NCBI GenBank assembly: GCA_947630985.1
Contig: CANRJQ010000009.1
Coordinates: 15,168-39,167 of the forward strand
DNA length: 24,000 bases
Origin: an uncultured Clostridia bacterium
GTDB taxonomy: Bacteria; Bacillota; Clostridia; Tissierellales; Peptoniphilaceae
Direction: 5' to 3'
Positions 3,482-22,643 of the stretch are shown in pieces. The position numbers and the translations under genes are program-made. The notes below the pieces were generated by a model, which worked only from the letters and a program-made list of their open reading frames with translations, did not search any database and had not been told where the DNA came from. The stretch's first letter is position 1, and every line of letters starts with the position of its first letter.

Positions 3482-4678
3482 TCATATATTCAAATTTTCA
3501 AGCTCATTTCTAAAAATATCAATTACATTTTCATTTTTTGAAATATATATAATTCCTTGGAGAAGCTTTTTATTACCTCCACCTCTTAAATTATATTTGT
3601 TTTTTAGCCTATCCATTAAAAGTTCCATATTAATAGTGGTATTGCCACAAGGTTTAATTAAGAATTGAACTAACTCATTGTTTTGATGATATAGAATCAA
3701 TATAATATTATCTTCTTCGAAAAACTTTGAATAATTAATAGCCTCGGAAAAATTAAGTCTATAAAAGTTTTCAAAGAGCAATTTATAATTTCCTAAGTGT
3801 TCAAGATTGGTCATGGAATTTTCTTTTAATAATTGGAAGAAGCTGTTCTTTAATGAGGCGTAATTTTCGGACAAAGAAATTTTAGATTCTACATGCATAT
3901 CGAATTTTTCAATAAGATTGTCGCTATTAGCAGATAGTTTTTCGGCTAAATTATAAACAATATTATTCTTTTTTGTATAATCCAATAATGATTCTTTACC
4001 TACCAAAACCTTTACTCTAGCTTTTCCATTTTGCTTATAAATCTCGATTATTTTTAATAATCCAAGCTCTCCCGTGTAATTTACATGTGTACCGCCGCAT
4101 GCAGAATAGTCTATGGAATCAATTTCTACGACACGCAAGTTTTTATTGACCTTTGGGGATTTTCTAAAATCTATTTTGCTTTTATCTTCTTCTTTAGGAA
4201 AATACGATTTTACTAAAAAATTATTTTGTACTATGGTATTAGCTAATTCTTCTACTTTTTCAGTTTCGTAATTTTCTAAATAGTCAGTATCTAAATCGAT
4301 AGTTATGAACCCATCAGATGCATGAAAGCTAATAGTGGGAATATCAAATAATCTGTGAAAACACGAAGAGATAATATGTTGAGCTGTATGTTGTTGCATA
4401 ATTTGGAAACGATGTTCCCAATCTATTTTAACCAATGCAGTACTGCCGGGAATTTTATCTTTTGTGATATGTATAATTTTCCCATCTTTCTCTATAGATT
4501 TTTCAACGATCACGTCATTTATCCATCCTTTATCGCCTCTTTGGCCACCCACACCGTCAGGATAAAAAATAGTTTTGTCTAAAATCGTATGATACTCATC
4601 TCCTACTTTTCTATTTAGGAGTACTTTTCCTTCTACCTCATTTAAATAAGAGTTAATCATATATAATTTTTCAGTCAT
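3482..4678 (-). CDS. alaX: AlaX-L-type alanyl-tRNA editing protein (Ala/Thr-tRNA synthetase second additional domain plus DHHA1-like C-terminus)
   Basis: Zinc/editing motifs HTAQHIISSCFH and CGGTHV, and a C-terminal GGGNKKLLQG. The track ORF extends to 4786, but ATG at 4678 (MTEKLYMINSY...) has GGTGA 5 nt upstream. The extra 36 codons would overlap comEC. Confidence 0.8.
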   Translation of the reverse strand: MTEKLYMINSYLNEVEGKVLLNRKVGDEYHTILDKTIFYPDGVGGQRGDKGWINDVIVEKSIEKDGKIIHITKDKIPGSTALVKIDWEHRFQIMQQHTAQHIISSCFHRLFDIPTISFHASDGFITIDLDTDYLENYETEKVEELANTIVQNNFLVKSYFPKEEDKSKIDFRKSPKVNKNLRVVEIDSIDYSACGGTHVNYTGELGLLKIIEIYKQNGKARVKVLVGKESLLDYTKKNNIVYNLAEKLSANSDNLIEKFDMHVESKISLSENYASLKNSFFQLLKENSMTNLEHLGNYKLLFENFYRLNFSEAINYSKFFEEDNIILILYHQNNELVQFLIKPCGNTTINMELLMDRLKNKYNLRGGGNKKLLQGIIYISKNENVIDIFRNELENLNI

Positions 4679-4745
4679 TTCAATCACCAAATACATTTTA
4701 TCATAGAATCGTTTTCTTACAAATAGAATCTGATATAATAATATT
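4679..4745. promoter_or_regulatory. Divergent promoter region for alaX (-) and comEC (+)
   Basis: On the + strand there is an extended -10, TGaTATAAT (4731-4739), only 6 nt before the comEC ATG. On the - strand there is TTGTAA (4722-4717), a 16-nt spacer and TGaTAAAAT (-10 at 4700-4695). That -10 lies very close to the alaX SD, so an alternative TTGCGA-16-TATTAT further upstream, inside the comEC 5' end, is also possible. Confidence 0.4.
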
Positions 4746-7067
4746 ATGGAAAATAAGATTCGCAATTGTATGATAGGTTTAATCATAGGGATACTAATAT
4801 TTTTTGAATTGAATATTTATTTTTATTTTGCATTTCTAGTTATTGTTGCAACTTTTGTAATTGCTACGAATTCGCATGATAGCCAGTATTTTCTTTTTGG
4901 TGTCTTGCTTTTATCATTTTATATTATATTTTTCCATAATACTTTTAACTATGAAATAGGACAAGAGATTGAAATCTCTGGAGAAGTTACAAGGGTAAAT
5001 AAAAGATATGATAGTTATCAACGTATAGAAGTATTGACAAAAGGTAATGGAAAATTTTCTATTGCTACTAGAGGAGATGTGAAATATGAGCTATTTGACT
5101 TAGTAGAAGGTACTATTGAGATAGAAGGTATTGGCGGCCATTACAATTTTAATTTTCAAAATCGTGAAGACTACTTTTTTGTGAAAAATATTATTAACAA
5201 TGCAAAATCTTATGACTTAACTAGAGCTGACAATCCATCATTAATAAAAAATTTGAAACTTAAAATTATTGCCAATATAACTTCCATCATAGACAATTAT
5301 TTTTCTGCTGAAAATAGAGGCATAATAAAAAAGATAGTATTAGCTGATGGAAGTGATATGGACGAAGATATTGAAGAATTGTATCAAGAAGGGGGATTAG
5401 CTCATTTACTTGCGATTTCAGGGCTACATATATTCATTCTTATAGGTGTTTTAGAATTCTTATTTATTAAAATGGTAATAAAATACAATTCGAGATTTAC
5501 GATTGTTTTTTCCATTTTAATTTTATACGGATTTATTCTTGATTATCCTCCATCTGTAAGTAGGGCAATGCTAATGTACTTCATAAGAGAAATTTCAGCA
5601 ATTAGCAAATTTAAAATTACATCTACATCGGTAATATATTTAGCTTGTATCATATTATTGACTATTTATCCAAAGTGGCTATATGATTTGGGGTTTCAAT
5701 TAAGTTTTATTTCAGTATATGGTATTTCTATTATGTATGAAAGACTAAACATAAATAAAAATAATTATTTATTAAATTCCTTGGCTTTATATTTAAGTGT
5801 AAATATATTATTATTTCCTTTACTTGTATATAATTTTAATAATTTCAACCTAGTTTCACTAATCGCTAATCTATTTATGACTCCGATTATTTCTTTTGTG
5901 CTAATAGGAACATATATAGGTTTAATTTTGGAAAATTTTCTTGGAATTGGAGGTTTACTATTAAGCACTTTGGATTTACTTCTTGAAGGCTCAAGTTTTT
6001 ACCTAGATCATATGGTATCATTTTTAGATTTTAGATTTAGAATTTATTATCCAGGTATTAATTTTGTGATTATGTACTATGTATTTTTATTTTTGATACT
6101 AAATAAATCTTTAATTAAAATATTTTATAGAAATAGACAGATAATTGGAGTTTCATTTTCTTTAATAATTTTAGCTTCACTAGTTATGGGAAGTGGAAAT
6201 GCCCTTTATTTAGGATTTTACGATGTTGGACAAGGAGATAGTGCTTATATTTTATACAAGGATAAATACATACAAATAGATACTGGTGGCACCATAAACT
6301 CTTCTTATAATCCTGGTGAAGAAGTTACAGCTAGGGGAATGATCAAAAGAGGTATAGATAAAATTGACATATTAATTTTAAGTCATTTTGATGAAGATCA
6401 CACAGGTGGAACCGAAAAGCTTTTGGAAAAAAACTTAGTGGAAAATGTGATAATAAATAAAAAAGAAGTTGGGAACAGAACTTTTGAATCCATTGAAAAC
6501 AGCAATGCAAAAATTTATTATCCTGTAAAAAATACACCTTTGATTATAGATAAAGATTTTAAAATGGAGTTTTTAAATATAAAGCCAGATGAATTTATAC
6601 AATCCAATGACTCATCCCTTATTGTTTTAATTACATATAAGAATACGAAAATTTTATTTACTGGAGATGCTTCATCTAATCTAGAAGATGAATTGCTTGG
6701 AGTTATTGGAAATATTGATATCTTAAAAGTAGCACATCATGGTTCAGAGAATTCTACAAGTAGAAATTTTTCATATTCTACCAGACCTAAATTTAGTATA
6801 ATTTCTGTGGGTAAAAACAACTCTTATGGTCATCCTTCGAAAAAAGTACTGGACAATTTAAATAATATTAACAGTAAAATATTAAGAACGGATTTAGAAG
6901 GGGAAATTATTTTTAAAATAGACGATAAAATATCCTATAAAACTTACAAAAATCCACAAGGGTTAAGAACAGATATGGGATTACAAGTTTTTTCTGCTAT
7001 AATATTTATTATGACCTTGGTACAAATAAAGAAAAATGAGGAGTCAAATGAAATACGGAGAATTTAG
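4746..7067 (+). CDS. comEC: DNA internalisation competence protein ComEC/Rec2
   Basis: Polytopic hydrophobic competence domain (GGLAHLLAISGLH). C-terminal metallo-beta-lactamase domain with DVGQGDSAYI, LSHFDEDHTGG and KVAHHGS. The comEC-holA-rpsT synteny is typical of Firmicutes. Confidence 0.9.
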   Translation: MENKIRNCMIGLIIGILIFFELNIYFYFAFLVIVATFVIATNSHDSQYFLFGVLLLSFYIIFFHNTFNYEIGQEIEISGEVTRVNKRYDSYQRIEVLTKGNGKFSIATRGDVKYELFDLVEGTIEIEGIGGHYNFNFQNREDYFFVKNIINNAKSYDLTRADNPSLIKNLKLKIIANITSIIDNYFSAENRGIIKKIVLADGSDMDEDIEELYQEGGLAHLLAISGLHIFILIGVLEFLFIKMVIKYNSRFTIVFSILILYGFILDYPPSVSRAMLMYFIREISAISKFKITSTSVIYLACIILLTIYPKWLYDLGFQLSFISVYGISIMYERLNINKNNYLLNSLALYLSVNILLFPLLVYNFNNFNLVSLIANLFMTPIISFVLIGTYIGLILENFLGIGGLLLSTLDLLLEGSSFYLDHMVSFLDFRFRIYYPGINFVIMYYVFLFLILNKSLIKIFYRNRQIIGVSFSLIILASLVMGSGNALYLGFYDVGQGDSAYILYKDKYIQIDTGGTINSSYNPGEEVTARGMIKRGIDKIDILILSHFDEDHTGGTEKLLEKNLVENVIINKKEVGNRTFESIENSNAKIYYPVKNTPLIIDKDFKMEFLNIKPDEFIQSNDSSLIVLITYKNTKILFTGDASSNLEDELLGVIGNIDILKVAHHGSENSTSRNFSYSTRPKFSIISVGKNNSYGHPSKKVLDNLNNINSKILRTDLEGEIIFKIDDKISYKTYKNPQGLRTDMGLQVFSAIIFIMTLVQIKKNEESNEIRRI

Positions 7068-8100: not shown

Positions 8101-8367
8101 TTATTTTACTAAAGAATTAAATTTTTTAGTTAATTGTCCAATTTTTCTAGAAGCTGTGTTTTTGTGAAAAACATTTTTTGATTGTGCTTTTCTCAATTTA
8201 CTTTCTGCTAGATTTAGATATTTTTTTGCTTTATCCATGTCAGCGCCTTCTATTGCGTCTTCAAATTTTTTCACATAAGTTTTAATTTGAGATTTTAGAG
8301 ACTTATTTCTAAGAGCATTTCTCTTAGCTATTTCAGCTCTTTTCAATGAAGATTTTATATTTGCCAT
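8101..8367 (-). CDS. rpsT: 30S ribosomal protein S20
   Basis: The 88-aa basic protein MANIKSSLKRAEIAKRNALRNKS... is characteristic of S20. GGAGGTG SD lies upstream on the - strand. Confidence 0.95.
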   Translation of the reverse strand: MANIKSSLKRAEIAKRNALRNKSLKSQIKTYVKKFEDAIEGADMDKAKKYLNLAESKLRKAQSKNVFHKNTASRKIGQLTKKFNSLVK

Positions 8368-12077: not shown

Positions 12078-13103
12078 ATGCTATTTACAAGTTTTGTAAA
12101 TAAAAGAAATAATTTTGAAACTAAAGAAATTTGGGATTATTTGCAAAAATTTGATGTTAATTATGATAACCCAGAAAGAACTGCAGTAGTCAGAGACAAT
12201 GGCAAAATTGTAGGCACTGGTTCAGTCGATGGAAAGGTTATGAAATATTTTTTTATTGATGAAGAATATATGGGCCATGGACTTTTATCTATGATATACA
12301 ATGCTTTACTTAATTTTCTTCTTGAAAATAACAGATTGGGACACTATGTTTTCACAACTCCTAATAACGGTTATATTTTTCAAGGGATAGGACTTACTGA
12401 GGTCGTGTCTACAGATAGAGTATCTTTGTTTGAAGGAGGTTTTTCTTCGTATGATAAGTGGATTAAATCCATAAAAGAAAAATTAAATCCCAAAGCTAAA
12501 ACCAGAGGGGCTGTTGTCGTAAATTGCAATCCTATGACATTAGGGCATAAACATTTGCTTGAGTATGCCAAAAGCAAAGTTGACGAATTGATAGTATTCA
12601 TTGTAGAAGAAGATAAATCTACTTTTACCACTGAAGAAAGATATTCAATTGTTAAAAATGAATACAAAAATGATGATAAGGTAGTAGTGATTTTAGGTGG
12701 GCCATATATAATTTCCCAGGCTACATTTCCAACATATTTTATAAAAAAATTAGATGAAACAACTGACATCTATACAGAACTAGATGCTACAATCTTTTCA
12801 AAAAGAATCGCAAAGGATTTAAAAATAAATATTAGATTTGTTGGTGATGAACCAATTGACCTCATGACTGCTAATTATAATGAAAATTTACTTAAAAGTT
12901 TTGAAAAATACAATTTATTACTTGAAAAAATTGATAGGATTAAGGATAATGGAACCTATATAAGTGCTTCAGTGGTAAGAAGATTAATTGAAGAAGGCAA
13001 AGTTGAAGATGCCTATAAGCTTCTACCAAAGAGTACAATTGATTTTTTAAAAAGTGACTTAGGAAAAAGTAAAATTAAAGAAATACAAGAGAAACGGAGT
13101 TAA
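12078..13103 (+). CDS. [Citrate (pro-3S)-lyase] ligase-like protein (GNAT-like N-domain plus cytidylyltransferase-fold ligase domain)
   Basis: NCNPMTLGHKHLLEYA is the HxGH-type nucleotidyltransferase motif. A late ISASVVRRLI motif is present. The N-terminus is GNAT-like (IDEEYMGHGL). GGAGG SD precedes the ATG. Confidence 0.7.
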   Translation: MLFTSFVNKRNNFETKEIWDYLQKFDVNYDNPERTAVVRDNGKIVGTGSVDGKVMKYFFIDEEYMGHGLLSMIYNALLNFLLENNRLGHYVFTTPNNGYIFQGIGLTEVVSTDRVSLFEGGFSSYDKWIKSIKEKLNPKAKTRGAVVVNCNPMTLGHKHLLEYAKSKVDELIVFIVEEDKSTFTTEERYSIVKNEYKNDDKVVVILGGPYIISQATFPTYFIKKLDETTDIYTELDATIFSKRIAKDLKINIRFVGDEPIDLMTANYNENLLKSFEKYNLLLEKIDRIKDNGTYISASVVRRLIEEGKVEDAYKLLPKSTIDFLKSDLGKSKIKEIQEKRS

Positions 13104-15576: not shown

Positions 15577-15605
15577 ATCACAAAAGGTGAAAAATATAGT
15601 ATAAT
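15577..15605 (+). promoter_or_regulatory. Possible promoter for the 15631 gene and the downstream ruv operon
   Basis: TATAAT at 15600-15605, about 25 nt before GTG 15631. The -35 region is poor (ATCACA/TATCAC). Confidence 0.3.
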
Positions 15606-15630
15606 GATTTGTACACCAAGGAGGAAAATA

Positions 15631-16362
15631 GTGTTAGCAGAAAATAATAGAAATCTTTCAAATTCTTTAAAGAGAAAATTTTTATATAACAACGACATAA
15701 ATAGCATTCATTTACTTATTAATATTTATGAATCTGAAGAAAATTTAGGCAATATTTTCCCTCAATATCTATCCATGGGCACTCTTAAAAAAATTGTCAA
15801 AAGATCTCTAAGGGGAAGACCAGGTAAAGACTTGGCCGCAAAAAATATTTCAGAACTAATTCATAATGACATCAATCGATTTGAACTCCTAGTATACTTG
15901 GAAGCATATAAAAGTGGTTATCATTCTACTAAGTATGTAAATAAGATAGAGAAAATTGTACTATCCACTTGTGGTGTAAAATCCATTTACACCAAAAATT
16001 ACATTCGCGATACACTTAAGAGTAATCCAGAAATTGTTTTAATAAAAAAAGAACTTATTAATCATATGAAAGAAGAAGTTAAATCAAATGTAAGCTTTAA
16101 TAGATTGGTTAATACTTTCAACAAGAAAATCCTAAAGCCCAAAATATTTAATATTAATAAGTATTTAGATAAGCAAGTTAAGATGGTAGAGGATGAAAAA
16201 GGAAAAACGGTGTTAAAATATGAAAGTAAACCTTTCACTCGAATAGAATTATCTAAAATGTACAGAAGAATAGTTCAAATAATTTTAGATGATGGTGTTA
16301 GAATAATGGCCGATGCTTATTGGTCAGGAATAATAGAAAAAGTAATAAGGAGATACAAATAG
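15631..16362 (+). CDS. Hypothetical basic protein (243 aa), no recognisable family
   Basis: Long ORF with coding-like composition. AAGGAGG at 15618-15624 is 6 nt before GTG 15631, and the track ATG at 15604 sits inside the promoter -10. The protein is Lys/Ile/Asn-rich and I recognise no catalytic or metal motifs. Confidence 0.6.
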   Translation: MLAENNRNLSNSLKRKFLYNNDINSIHLLINIYESEENLGNIFPQYLSMGTLKKIVKRSLRGRPGKDLAAKNISELIHNDINRFELLVYLEAYKSGYHSTKYVNKIEKIVLSTCGVKSIYTKNYIRDTLKSNPEIVLIKKELINHMKEEVKSNVSFNRLVNTFNKKILKPKIFNINKYLDKQVKMVEDEKGKTVLKYESKPFTRIELSKMYRRIVQIILDDGVRIMADAYWSGIIEKVIRRYK

Positions 16363-18528: not shown

Positions 18529-20693
<2,165 letters not shown>

Positions 20694-20695
20694 TT

Positions 20696-20974
20696 TTGCC
20701 ACAAGAATATTATAGCATTTTGATGATGGTAGCTATGTTTGCATTTTTCTATTTATTTATGATGAGACCTCAAAAGAAAAAAGAAAAGGCTATTGCAGAA
20801 ATGCGTTCAAACCTAAAGGTCGGTGACAATGTCATAACCATAGGTGGCGTAGTTGGTACTATCGTTTTATTAAAAGAAGATTACGTAACAATAGAAACCA
20901 GTGGTATGAAGACTAGAATCGAATTTACTAAGTGGGGAATTAGCTCAGTAAATAATATTACACCTGGAGAGTAA
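20696..20974 (+). CDS. yajC: Preprotein translocase accessory subunit YajC
   Basis: 92 aa with a single N-terminal TM followed by MMRPQKKKEK and the VxTxGGxxGxV block (VITIGGVVGTIV). TTG start after GGAGGG. Confidence 0.9.
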   Translation: MPQEYYSILMMVAMFAFFYLFMMRPQKKKEKAIAEMRSNLKVGDNVITIGGVVGTIVLLKEDYVTIETSGMKTRIEFTKWGISSVNNITPGE

Positions 20975-20985
20975 TGGAGGATATC

Positions 20986-21135
20986 ATGACACATATCAAA
21001 ACACTTACTAAAAAGAGTTTAAAGGATACACGTTCATATGCAGGATGTGGCGAATGCCAAACATCATGTCAATCAGCGTGTAAAACATCTTGCACTGTAG
21101 GAAATCAAAAGTGCGAAAATGAAAAAAGAGACTAA
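20986..21135 (+). CDS. scfA: SCIFF (six cysteines in forty-five residues) ranthipeptide precursor peptide; absent from the supplied ORF track
   Basis: ATG 20986 lies 5 nt after GGAGG (20976-20980); stop is TAA 21133-21135. The 49-aa product is MTHIKTLTKKSLKDTRSYAGCGECQTSCQSACKTSCTVGNQKCENEKRD. The GCGECQTSCQSACKTSCTVGNQ core is the SCIFF family hallmark, and a cognate rSAM/SPASM gene follows immediately. Confidence 0.9.
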   Translation: MTHIKTLTKKSLKDTRSYAGCGECQTSCQSACKTSCTVGNQKCENEKRD

Positions 21136-21138
21136 TTT

Positions 21139-21161
21139 GAAGTGGGTCACCACTTCTTTTT
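21139..21161 (+). terminator. Intercistronic hairpin plus T-run, likely a partial terminator or attenuator between precursor and maturase
   Basis: GAAGTGG (21139-21145), loop GTCA, CCACTTC (21150-21156), followed by TTTTT (21157-21161). The scfB SD AGGAG at 21166-21170 lies just downstream. Confidence 0.6.
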
Positions 21162-21175
21162 AGTTAGGAGAAAAA

Positions 21176-22519
21176 ATGATACACAAATATTATTTAAATG
21201 ACAATTTCATAGTATTAGATGTCGAAAGTGGTTCTGTTCATGTGGTTGACGAATTGACCTATGACATACTAGACGACTATACTATACTAGATAAAAATGC
21301 ATTAATTTCTAAACATTCAAAAAAATACAATAAGTCGGATATTGAAACGGCAATTGGAGAAATTGAAATATTAATTTCAGAAGAATTACTTTTTTCTGAA
21401 AAAACTAATTATGAAGATATTGAATACAATCCAACTAATATAGTTAAAGCTATGTGTTTACACGTTGCCCATGATTGTAATTTAAAATGTAAATATTGTT
21501 TTGCAGCTCAGGGAAATTTTAAAGGCGAAAGGGCATTAATGTCTTTAGAAACTGGGAAAAAATCTTTGGAATTTCTTGCAAAGAACTCAGGAAATAGAAG
21601 GAATTTAGAAGTTGACTTTTTCGGCGGCGAACCATTGATGAATTTTGATGTGGTTAAAGAGCTAGTCCATTATGGAAGAGAGCTAGAGAAAATATATAAC
21701 AAAAATTTTCGATTTACCATAACTACAAATGGAGTATTACTGACTGACGATAAAATTGAATTTATTAACGAACATATGGATAATGTCGTGCTTTCTTTAG
21801 ATGGTAGAAAAGAAGTAAATGATTATATCAGACCTACACTCAATGACAAAGGAAGTTTTGATTTGATAGTTCCTAAGTTTAAAAAATTAATAGATACTCG
21901 TGGCGAAAAAGATTACTATATTCGCGGAACCTTTACAAAGTTCAACAAAGACTTTAGAAAAGATTTAAAAGCCTATTATGATTTAGGTTTTAAAAAAGTA
22001 TCTATTGAACCGGTAGTTACAGATCCAAATGAACCTTATGCTTTGACCGAAGAAGATTTGTATGAAATATTAAAAGAATACGAAGAATTTTCAAAAGATT
22101 ATTTAGATATTCGAAAAACAGACAAGGACTTCCTATTTTTCCACTATATGATAGATCTATCCCAAGGACCATGTGTAGTTAAAAGGCTAGTAGGGTGTGG
22201 TGCCGGAAGCGAATATATTGCAATCACTCCTGAGGGTGATATATATCCTTGTCACCAATTTGTTGGAGAAAAAGAATTTTTAATGGGGAATCTGGAAGAA
22301 GGAATTACAAATATTAAACTTAGAGATAATTTCAAATGCGCCAATGTTCTAAACAAAACAGAATGTGATAATTGCTTTGCTAAATATTATTGTAGCGGAG
22401 GATGTCACGCCAATGCATTTTTTAATAATGGAGATTTCTTAAAACCTTATGAACTTGGTTGTGAAATGGAAAGAAAGAGAGTCGAGTGTTCTATTTCAAT
22501 CTTAGCAAACGAAATATAA
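21176..22519 (+). CDS. scfB: SCIFF radical SAM/SPASM maturase (thioether-forming, CteB/Tte1186 family)
   Basis: CX3CX2C motif CNLKCKYC (about nt 21476-21499), GGEPL, and a C-terminal SPASM domain with CGAGSEYIAITPEGDIYPCHQF and CX2CX5CX3C (CDNCFAKYYCSGGC, about nt 22364-22405). It lies directly downstream of the SCIFF precursor. Confidence 0.9.
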   Translation: MIHKYYLNDNFIVLDVESGSVHVVDELTYDILDDYTILDKNALISKHSKKYNKSDIETAIGEIEILISEELLFSEKTNYEDIEYNPTNIVKAMCLHVAHDCNLKCKYCFAAQGNFKGERALMSLETGKKSLEFLAKNSGNRRNLEVDFFGGEPLMNFDVVKELVHYGRELEKIYNKNFRFTITTNGVLLTDDKIEFINEHMDNVVLSLDGRKEVNDYIRPTLNDKGSFDLIVPKFKKLIDTRGEKDYYIRGTFTKFNKDFRKDLKAYYDLGFKKVSIEPVVTDPNEPYALTEEDLYEILKEYEEFSKDYLDIRKTDKDFLFFHYMIDLSQGPCVVKRLVGCGAGSEYIAITPEGDIYPCHQFVGEKEFLMGNLEEGITNIKLRDNFKCANVLNKTECDNCFAKYYCSGGCHANAFFNNGDFLKPYELGCEMERKRVECSISILANEI

Positions 22520-22563: not shown

Positions 22564-22643
22564 AATTTGTTGTGAGCCGCACTATATAGGTTTTAAACAT
22601 AAAGTACCTTATTAGGCGAGACTGGTTAAGAGGAGGTGCCCGC

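Follow-up and report, generated by a model that had tools for sequence, protein, structure and literature searches.

Evidence for a canonical SCIFF ranthipeptide gene pair, scfA-scfB, with a conserved type of spacer hairpin in an uncultured Tissierellia bacterium

The closest described systems to the gene pair considered here are CteA/CteB (thermocellin) of Clostridium thermocellum and Tte1186a/Tte1186 of Caldanaerobacter subterraneus. According to reviews, Tte1186 and CteB each install a single thioether running from Cys32, the fourth cysteine of the precursor peptide, to a threonine, and it is on account of the acceptor findings for these products that SCIFF products are now classed as ranthipeptides. 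The acceptor in CteA was assigned to Thr37 by in vitro studies, as these reviews summarize them, and reportedly to the C-gamma of Thr34 by Hudson et al. 2019, who used co-expression of CteA with CteB in E. coli. In the crystal structure of CteB, an N-terminal recognition domain is described as binding the CteA(1-21) leader as a beta-strand, and one iron of an auxiliary cluster as having an open site. Se-EXAFS on Tte1186 found that, ahead of cross-linking, the donor residue is bound to the corresponding iron, that of auxiliary cluster 1. On the side of function, Chen et al. 2020 reportedly link SCIFF peptides, by means of a knockout, to quorum sensing and to sporulation gene expression. The quorum-sensing proposal derives from the phenotype of a gene-pair disruption in Clostridium beijerinckii, in which sporulation-gene expression reportedly goes down and agr expression goes up, and a regulatory, quorum-sensing-like role is the best published lead for SCIFF function.

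We analyzed a 24-kb stretch of DNA (the window) from an uncultured Tissierellia bacterium, in which a small gene, scfA, lies on the + strand at 20986..21135. Read directly from the sequence, this gene starts with ATG (20986-20988), ends with TAA (21133-21135), and stands behind a Shine-Dalgarno sequence, GGAGG (20976..20980, + strand), from which it is separated by the 5-nt spacer ATATC (20981-20985). Its 49 codons translate to MTHIKTLTKKSLKDTRSYAGCGECQTSCQSACKTSCTVGNQKCENEKRD (49 aa), with cysteines at residues 21, 24, 28, 32, 36, and 43, i.e., C-x2-C-x3-C-x3-C-x3-C-x6-C. A leader of approximately residues 1-19 is followed by an invariant core, G20-Q41, and then by C43 and E44. An earlier reading of the window made from the letters alone (the sequence-only reading) had proposed this ORF together with its GGAGG, its 5-nt spacer, and its six-cysteine spacing, and direct reading and translation bore out every one of these details.

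A mechanical ORF list gives a longer version of the gene, with the scfA frame open from an ATG at 20974 (53 aa) that overlaps the stop codon of the upstream gene yajC as TAATG. We dropped this start. When the homologous genes were aligned (n=81), their starts fell on ATG 20986, as ATG in 76 and as GTG in 5, and the homologous SCIFF peptides open with M-K/T-H-I-K-T-L. Because the homologous starts align at this position and the Shine-Dalgarno sequence lies between the two ATGs, ATG 20986 is taken to be the right start.

The 49-aa peptide was assigned to the SCIFF family by two models, both of which aligned to it without gaps and over nearly their whole length: TIGR03973 'six_Cys_in_45' (80.7 bits against a cut-off of 50, E = 5e-23) and PF13165 SCIFF (82.9 bits against a cut-off of 27, E = 1.5e-23). 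The sequence-only reading had called the product a SCIFF-type RiPP precursor and had named TIGR03973 six_Cys_in_45 as the profile to search; the accession and name were correct, the peptide passed the search, and the assignment is confirmed by scores above both family cut-offs. The core matches the consensus of 77 homologues at each invariant position (GCGECQTSCQSACKTSCTVGNQxCE). A search of solved structures with the 49-aa peptide gave chance-level matches to ferredoxin-type cysteine motifs only, and did not retrieve the CteA 1-21 fragment of 5WGG/5WHY. We conclude, with a probability of about 0.93, that this uncultured Tissierellia bacterium carries here a canonical scfA-scfB gene pair of the SCIFF ranthipeptide type; no observation speaks against the identification.

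The pattern of codon variation further supports scfA as a protein-coding gene. Across core codons 20-41 in 81 genes, mean entropy is 0.02 bits at position 1, 0.04 bits at position 2, and 1.21 bits at position 3. Near-fixed first and second positions beside a free third position amount to strong purifying selection on the amino acids, and thus the comparison across genes shows scfA to be translated, with selection acting on the protein and not on an RNA element or a chance ORF. In 73 of the 77 peptides from related loci, residue 21 is the first cysteine. The stretch G20-Q41 hardly varies among them, and all 77 have C32, T34, and T37, these loci being the best matches to the query, which somewhat flatters the conservation. 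The window peptide departs from the consensus only in its leader, with T2 in place of K, S17 and Y18 in place of K and K, and A19 in place of G, and in a slightly longer tail (49 aa in total, against 46-48 in most homologues).

The gene pair is widespread. In a scan of species-representative genomes, with each species represented once, at least 590 encoded SCIFF relatives came up, and the relatives among the matches listed come from Peptoniphilus, Tissierella, Lachnospiraceae, Oscillospiraceae, and others. In GenBank, a sequence identical to the scfA peptide is entered as NLD16696.1, 'six-cysteine peptide SCIFF [Tissierellia bacterium]', the neighboring enzyme is GenBank NLD16697.1, 'thioether cross-link-forming SCIFF peptide maturase', and an exact-sequence look-up located the same sequence in the public contig JAAZCH010000109.1 (GCA_012513395.1). 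Public gene calls include the small gene on all six contigs, and on the contig of the exact match they list a 49-aa SCIFF at this position. Since the pair is widespread and an exact copy already bears its name in GenBank, it is an ordinary find, present in hundreds of Clostridia-type species. The description of scfA as a hidden gene in the sequence-only reading does not stand: the gene was absent only from the ORF track supplied to that reading. What the absence does illustrate is that a length-thresholded ORF track misses real, strongly conserved small genes.

Several observations on deposited relatives of the peptide are recorded here. In the Logan assembly SRR9333256, from the same organism, a homopolymer near the 3' end of scfA (21122-21127) reads A7 instead of A6, which changes the tail from ENEKRD to ENEKKRLI and gives a peptide of 51 aa that is also deposited as MFB0971993.1. 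This change falls past the last cysteine, and either genuine variation or a sequencing error in the homopolymer may account for it. A SCIFF gene accompanied by scfB is found in CAVFXS010000046.1 (4001-4141), titled 'Bacteroidales bacterium H4', and its peptide is identical to one from a contig labeled uncultured Clostridium sp.; this is probably a mis-binned or mislabeled assembly rather than a case of SCIFF in Bacteroidota. Also listed in the 90%-identity cluster of the 49-aa peptide is an unrelated protein of 827 aa, rich in Ala, evidently a clustering artefact of the protein collection. We would also like to note that unrelated Streptococcus 'subcutaneous fitness' genes bear the same names, scfA and scfB.

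Starting 40 nt past the scfA stop codon, scfB (21176..22519, + strand) encodes a 447-aa radical SAM/SPASM protein, identified as a thioether-forming SCIFF maturase per TIGR03974 together with PF04055, PF13353, and PF13186, and is preceded by its own Shine-Dalgarno sequence, AGGAG (21166..21170, + strand), which direct reading places 5 nt before the ATG. ScfB scores 679.8 bits against TIGR03974 (rSAM_six_Cys; cut-off 425), whereas its score against NF040492 not_ScfB, a model for look-alike orphan proteins, is 572.9 bits and lies below the cut-off of 855. These two results uphold the claim that the adjacent enzyme is the cognate SCIFF maturase. The SPASM region is recognized by PF13186 (27.3 bits, cut-off 21.5) and TIGR04085 (67.5 bits, cut-off 27), and the next-best families, NF047865 PapB (267.4 bits) and TIGR03906 QhpD (262.8 bits), fall below their cut-offs of 340 and 453, respectively. 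Among 77 homologous loci, scfB follows scfA at a distance of no more than 600 nt in 75.

ScfB was further compared to CteB (PDB 5WGG/5WHY), to which it aligns with E = 1e-165 and 53.9% identity over 447 aligned columns. The radical-SAM motif C101-x3-C105-x2-C108 is conserved, and ScfB residues C333, C341, C359, C397, C400, C406, C410, C429, and C438 align to CteB cysteines, such that all nine C-terminal (SPASM) cysteines of CteB are conserved and every Fe-S cysteine is aligned. Residues 1-85 of ScfB align without a break to the N-terminus of CteB, which a review gives as the site of the CteB recognition domain.

Given 54% identity to CteB and the conservation of all cluster ligands, the same reaction is expected of ScfB, i.e., by analogy with CteB, an S-C(gamma) thioether on the scfA peptide. 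By homology, the N-terminal domain of ScfB would bind the M-x-H-I-K-T-L leader as an added beta-strand, and the donor cysteine, which is Cys32 in the homologues, would be a ligand to the open iron in auxiliary cluster 1. Cleavage of SAM by the radical-SAM cluster would then give a 5'-deoxyadenosyl radical, which would abstract a hydrogen from the side chain of Thr34 or Thr37. The product predicted on the basis of CteB identity, the conserved cluster cysteines, and Tte1186 biochemistry would carry an S-C(gamma) thioether and show a 2-Da loss. The sequence-only reading had stated that Tte1186 and CteB make a Cys-Thr thioether, with the products classed as ranthipeptides, and the reviews uphold this, the thioether being a single one; it had also described Cys32 and Thr37 as conserved, which is true of the window peptide and of all the homologues compared. 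Its use of Thr37 as the acceptor is in part sustained, agreeing with the in vitro assignment and disagreeing with the Thr34 C-gamma found in E. coli. As both threonines are conserved in the peptide, the acceptor is not callable from its sequence.

Upstream of the pair, yajC, encoding a preprotein translocase subunit, lies at 20696..20974 on the + strand (TIGR00739, 79.1 bits against a cut-off of 44.2; PF02699, 99.6 bits). Its stop codon, TAA (20972-20974), ends 11 nt before the scfA start, and a consensus scan found no terminator-like site between the two genes. From this close spacing and from the absence of a terminator between the genes we infer that scfA is probably transcribed with tgt and yajC. 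We treat yajC as a probable co-transcription partner outside the RiPP system. The sequenced window otherwise carries housekeeping genes, namely a PEP-utilising enzyme (pyruvate phosphate dikinase / PEP synthase type), comEC, holA, lepB, lepA, hemW, ruvCAB, queA, tgt, and yajC, then scfAB, and then rplU, prp, and rpmA. The order queA-tgt-yajC-scfAB-rplU was rejected as a trait of the family: yajC lies within 300 nt upstream of scfA in 5 of 77 loci (within 2.5 kb in 17 of 77), and in none of the 77 related loci is rplU found within 3.5 kb downstream of scfAB.

The spacer between scfA and scfB contains a terminator-like stem-loop, GAAGTGG-GTCA-CCACTTC followed by TTTTT (21139..21161, + strand), found by a consensus scan and by RNA folding. 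The stem-loop proper (21139-21156) begins 3 nt past the scfA stop codon and consists of a 7-bp stem with four G-C pairs and a 4-nt loop, with a core energy of -11.1 kcal/mol. The region 21130-21180 folds at -16.4 kcal/mol (z = -3.8), and none of 200 shuffled sequences is as stable; a longer fold of 21130-21165 adds a 6-bp lower stem that takes in the scfA stop codon. The element has the form of an intrinsic terminator or attenuator, and termination is predicted from that form. No Rfam family matched the window at gathering thresholds, and none of the matches gained by relaxing the thresholds touched scfA or the spacer hairpin.

Spacers of this kind are structured in most other loci as well (n=74), where 86% fold at z < -2 (median -3.9) and 71 of 74 have a hairpin of at least 7 bp (median 13 bp). 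In 24 of 74 spacers, such a hairpin is followed by 9 nt of which at least 5 are T, against 3% of shuffled spacers. The close relative Peptoniphilus lacrimalis is an exception, its spacer being without a stable hairpin (z = +1.33). Hairpin sequences differ between lineages, the type in Lachnospiraceae spacers being AAGCAGCGG...CCGCTGCTT, and thus it is the structure that is conserved and not the sequence. Given that a clear U-tract occurs in only about one third of homologous spacers, the hairpin could be an RNA-stability or processing signal in many lineages. In the window, the distance from the end of the T-run (21161) to the scfB ATG (21176) is 14 nt, which is taken up by the scfB ribosome-binding site, and a scan of the + strand over 20920-21253 gave no promoter-like site; for these two reasons, scfB would be expressed by read-through. 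Altogether, the conserved spacer hairpin suggests attenuated read-through, with the hairpin serving as an attenuator or transcript-stabilizing element that would set a high precursor:enzyme ratio. Under this model, scfA is translated from ATG 20986 behind its GGAGG, a start that homology shows, the stem-loop and T5 would probably terminate or stabilize most transcripts, and read-through into scfB would leave more precursor message than enzyme message. We found no discussion of the scfA-scfB spacer hairpin in the reviews and papers on SCIFF that were consulted.

The same hairpin could be a full terminator of the tgt-yajC-scfA transcript, in which case scfB would be transcribed on its own. Such a role would suit the fit of hairpin and T5 to the intrinsic-terminator consensus, as well as the near-universal occurrence of hairpins in the scfA-scfB spacer. 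It is unlikely, however, in view of the short gap behind the T-run, filled as it is by the ribosome-binding site, the lack of a promoter-like site in the scanned region, and the modest size and stability of the stem. A second alternative concerns the chemistry of the product, which could be a sactipeptide, with a sulfur-to-alpha-carbon thioether, in place of a ranthipeptide. According to reviews, alpha-carbon links were assumed when Tte1186 and CteB were first studied in vitro, and a 2021 review still places SCIFF among the sactipeptides. Against this, deuterium labeling and fragmentation of CteA, as summarized in reviews, showed a gamma-carbon link without fragmentation of the sactionine type, and enzymes of the ScfB type belong with QhpD and PapB, whose links go to beta and gamma carbons and which are also the next-best family matches of ScfB in our searches. 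We consider a sactipeptide product extremely improbable, and retain the ranthipeptide assignment.

A further alternative is that SCIFF is not a free product at all, but a putative intracellular cysteine-rich factor binding metal or an Fe-S cluster (ferredoxin-like, a cofactor or a chaperone) that would be tailored by ScfB and would act in the cell beside housekeeping machinery. Residues 18-41 of the peptide (21037-21108) weakly resemble the ferredoxin-type cysteine motif of the epoxyqueuosine reductase QueG (5D6S), at E = 0.0087 for the whole sequence. Searches of the 24-kb window and of the longer public contig found no protease or exporter gene, and none for a transporter near scfAB, and the core is invariant across several Clostridia orders, which would be unusual for a secreted signal or a bacteriocin. 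Reviews add that the CteB crystal structure shows a cysteine of the substrate as a ligand to an Fe-S cluster, and that only one of the six SCIFF cysteines is known to be cross-linked. However, over the aligned stretch the QueG likeness is no better than chance (E = 0.18), and the SCIFF spacing, C-x2-C-x3-C-x3-C, is not the ferredoxin spacing, C-x2-C-x2-C-x3-C-P; on account of this spacing, a ferredoxin identity of the core was rejected. The gene does lie just past the queuosine genes queA-tgt (18529-20693), but the queA-tgt-yajC neighborhood is lineage-specific, and published SCIFF knockouts point to a phenotype of the signaling type. Because the cysteine spacing differs and most SCIFF loci are without the queA-tgt-yajC linkage, we judge the QueG resemblance and the proximity to queA-tgt to be coincidence. 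A metal- or cluster-binding factor of this kind is in our estimation highly improbable. A broader proposal, that SCIFF is a housekeeping intracellular peptide handling thiols, metals, or Fe-S clusters, is in our estimation quite improbable. Were it true, the 22-residue core would be invariant because it binds a partner conserved in the cell, the near-universal hairpin past scfA would set the dosage of the peptide relative to its maturase, and SCIFF in this lineage would be wired into a neighborhood of tgt-yajC and ribosomal-protein genes. The reading that we prefer remains that of a canonical SCIFF ranthipeptide gene pair.

Elsewhere in the window, a few features are worth recording in their own right. 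The 125-nt gap between scfB and rplU contains, at 22578-22623 (+ strand), a low-scoring hit to L21_leader of Rfam (RF00559; 20.9 bits against a gathering threshold of 36, E = 0.55), in a place where such a leader is expected, and the match may represent a divergent ribosomal-protein leader. At 15604-16362 (+ strand), ruvC and a zinc phospholipase C-like gene flank a 252-aa Lys/Ile-rich ORF that matches nothing in Pfam or NCBIfam; a gene of 243 aa is called at this place in the public record as well, likewise without a Pfam match. The window is co-directional, with GC skew positive almost throughout, apart from two ORFs on the minus strand, the only ones there that were taken as genes in the 24 kb: one at 3482-4786 encodes a 434-aa AlaX-like protein with an alanyl-tRNA editing domain (NF040865, 137 bits against a cut-off of 300), and one at 8101-8367 is an 88-aa ORF that by eye resembles ribosomal protein S20. 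Finally, the product of 12078-13103 (+ strand) is citrate-lyase-ligase-like, scoring 243.5 bits against TIGR00124, just under the cut-off of 262.1. No citrate lyase subunit genes were found near it, and its substrate may differ for that reason.

The locus itself adds little, being one more orthologue of a curated and already annotated family. The family is still of biological interest. The statement in the sequence-only reading that SCIFF function is largely unresolved needs qualifying, as it passes over the functional data that Chen et al. 2020 do provide. The one slightly new point is the conserved spacer hairpin, which offers a testable handle on the balance between precursor and enzyme.

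In RiPP and bacteriocin operons, such as at the junctions of lantibiotic structural and modification genes, stem-loops stand between the cistrons for precursor and enzyme, and such a stem-loop is presumed to set a high precursor:enzyme ratio via read-through. The scfA spacer is similar in that a hairpin directly follows a short precursor gene; the difference from these stem-loops is that only about one third of SCIFF spacers have the clear U-tract. Among enzymes, PapB of the PapA/PapB system (freyrasin, Paenibacillus polymyxa) and QhpD are homologous radical SAM/SPASM formers of thioethers. The links made by PapB are six, run from Cys to the beta carbon of Asp, and fall on CX3D motifs; such motifs are absent from the window peptide, whose core is that of SCIFF.

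The Tte1186a/Tte1186 system shares both TIGR03973 and TIGR03974 with the window pair, the likeness having been drawn through these family models. Its single Cys-Thr thioether, with the donor cysteine on auxiliary cluster 1, is the chemistry that would by analogy be expected here. CteA/CteB (5WGG, 5WHY) has the same two-gene order, precursor and then maturase, and its peptide is in the same register, with the first cysteine at 21, the fourth at 32, and threonines at 34 and 37. In contrast to CteA/CteB, the window pair comes from a different order, as part of an uncultured Tissierellia MAG, and is known here from sequence. Its peptide differs from CteA in the leader (T2, S17, Y18, and A19) and in a slightly longer C-terminal tail, while ScfB has an additional cysteine, Cys388, where CteB has Asn, and is without the Cys233 (chain numbering) of CteB.
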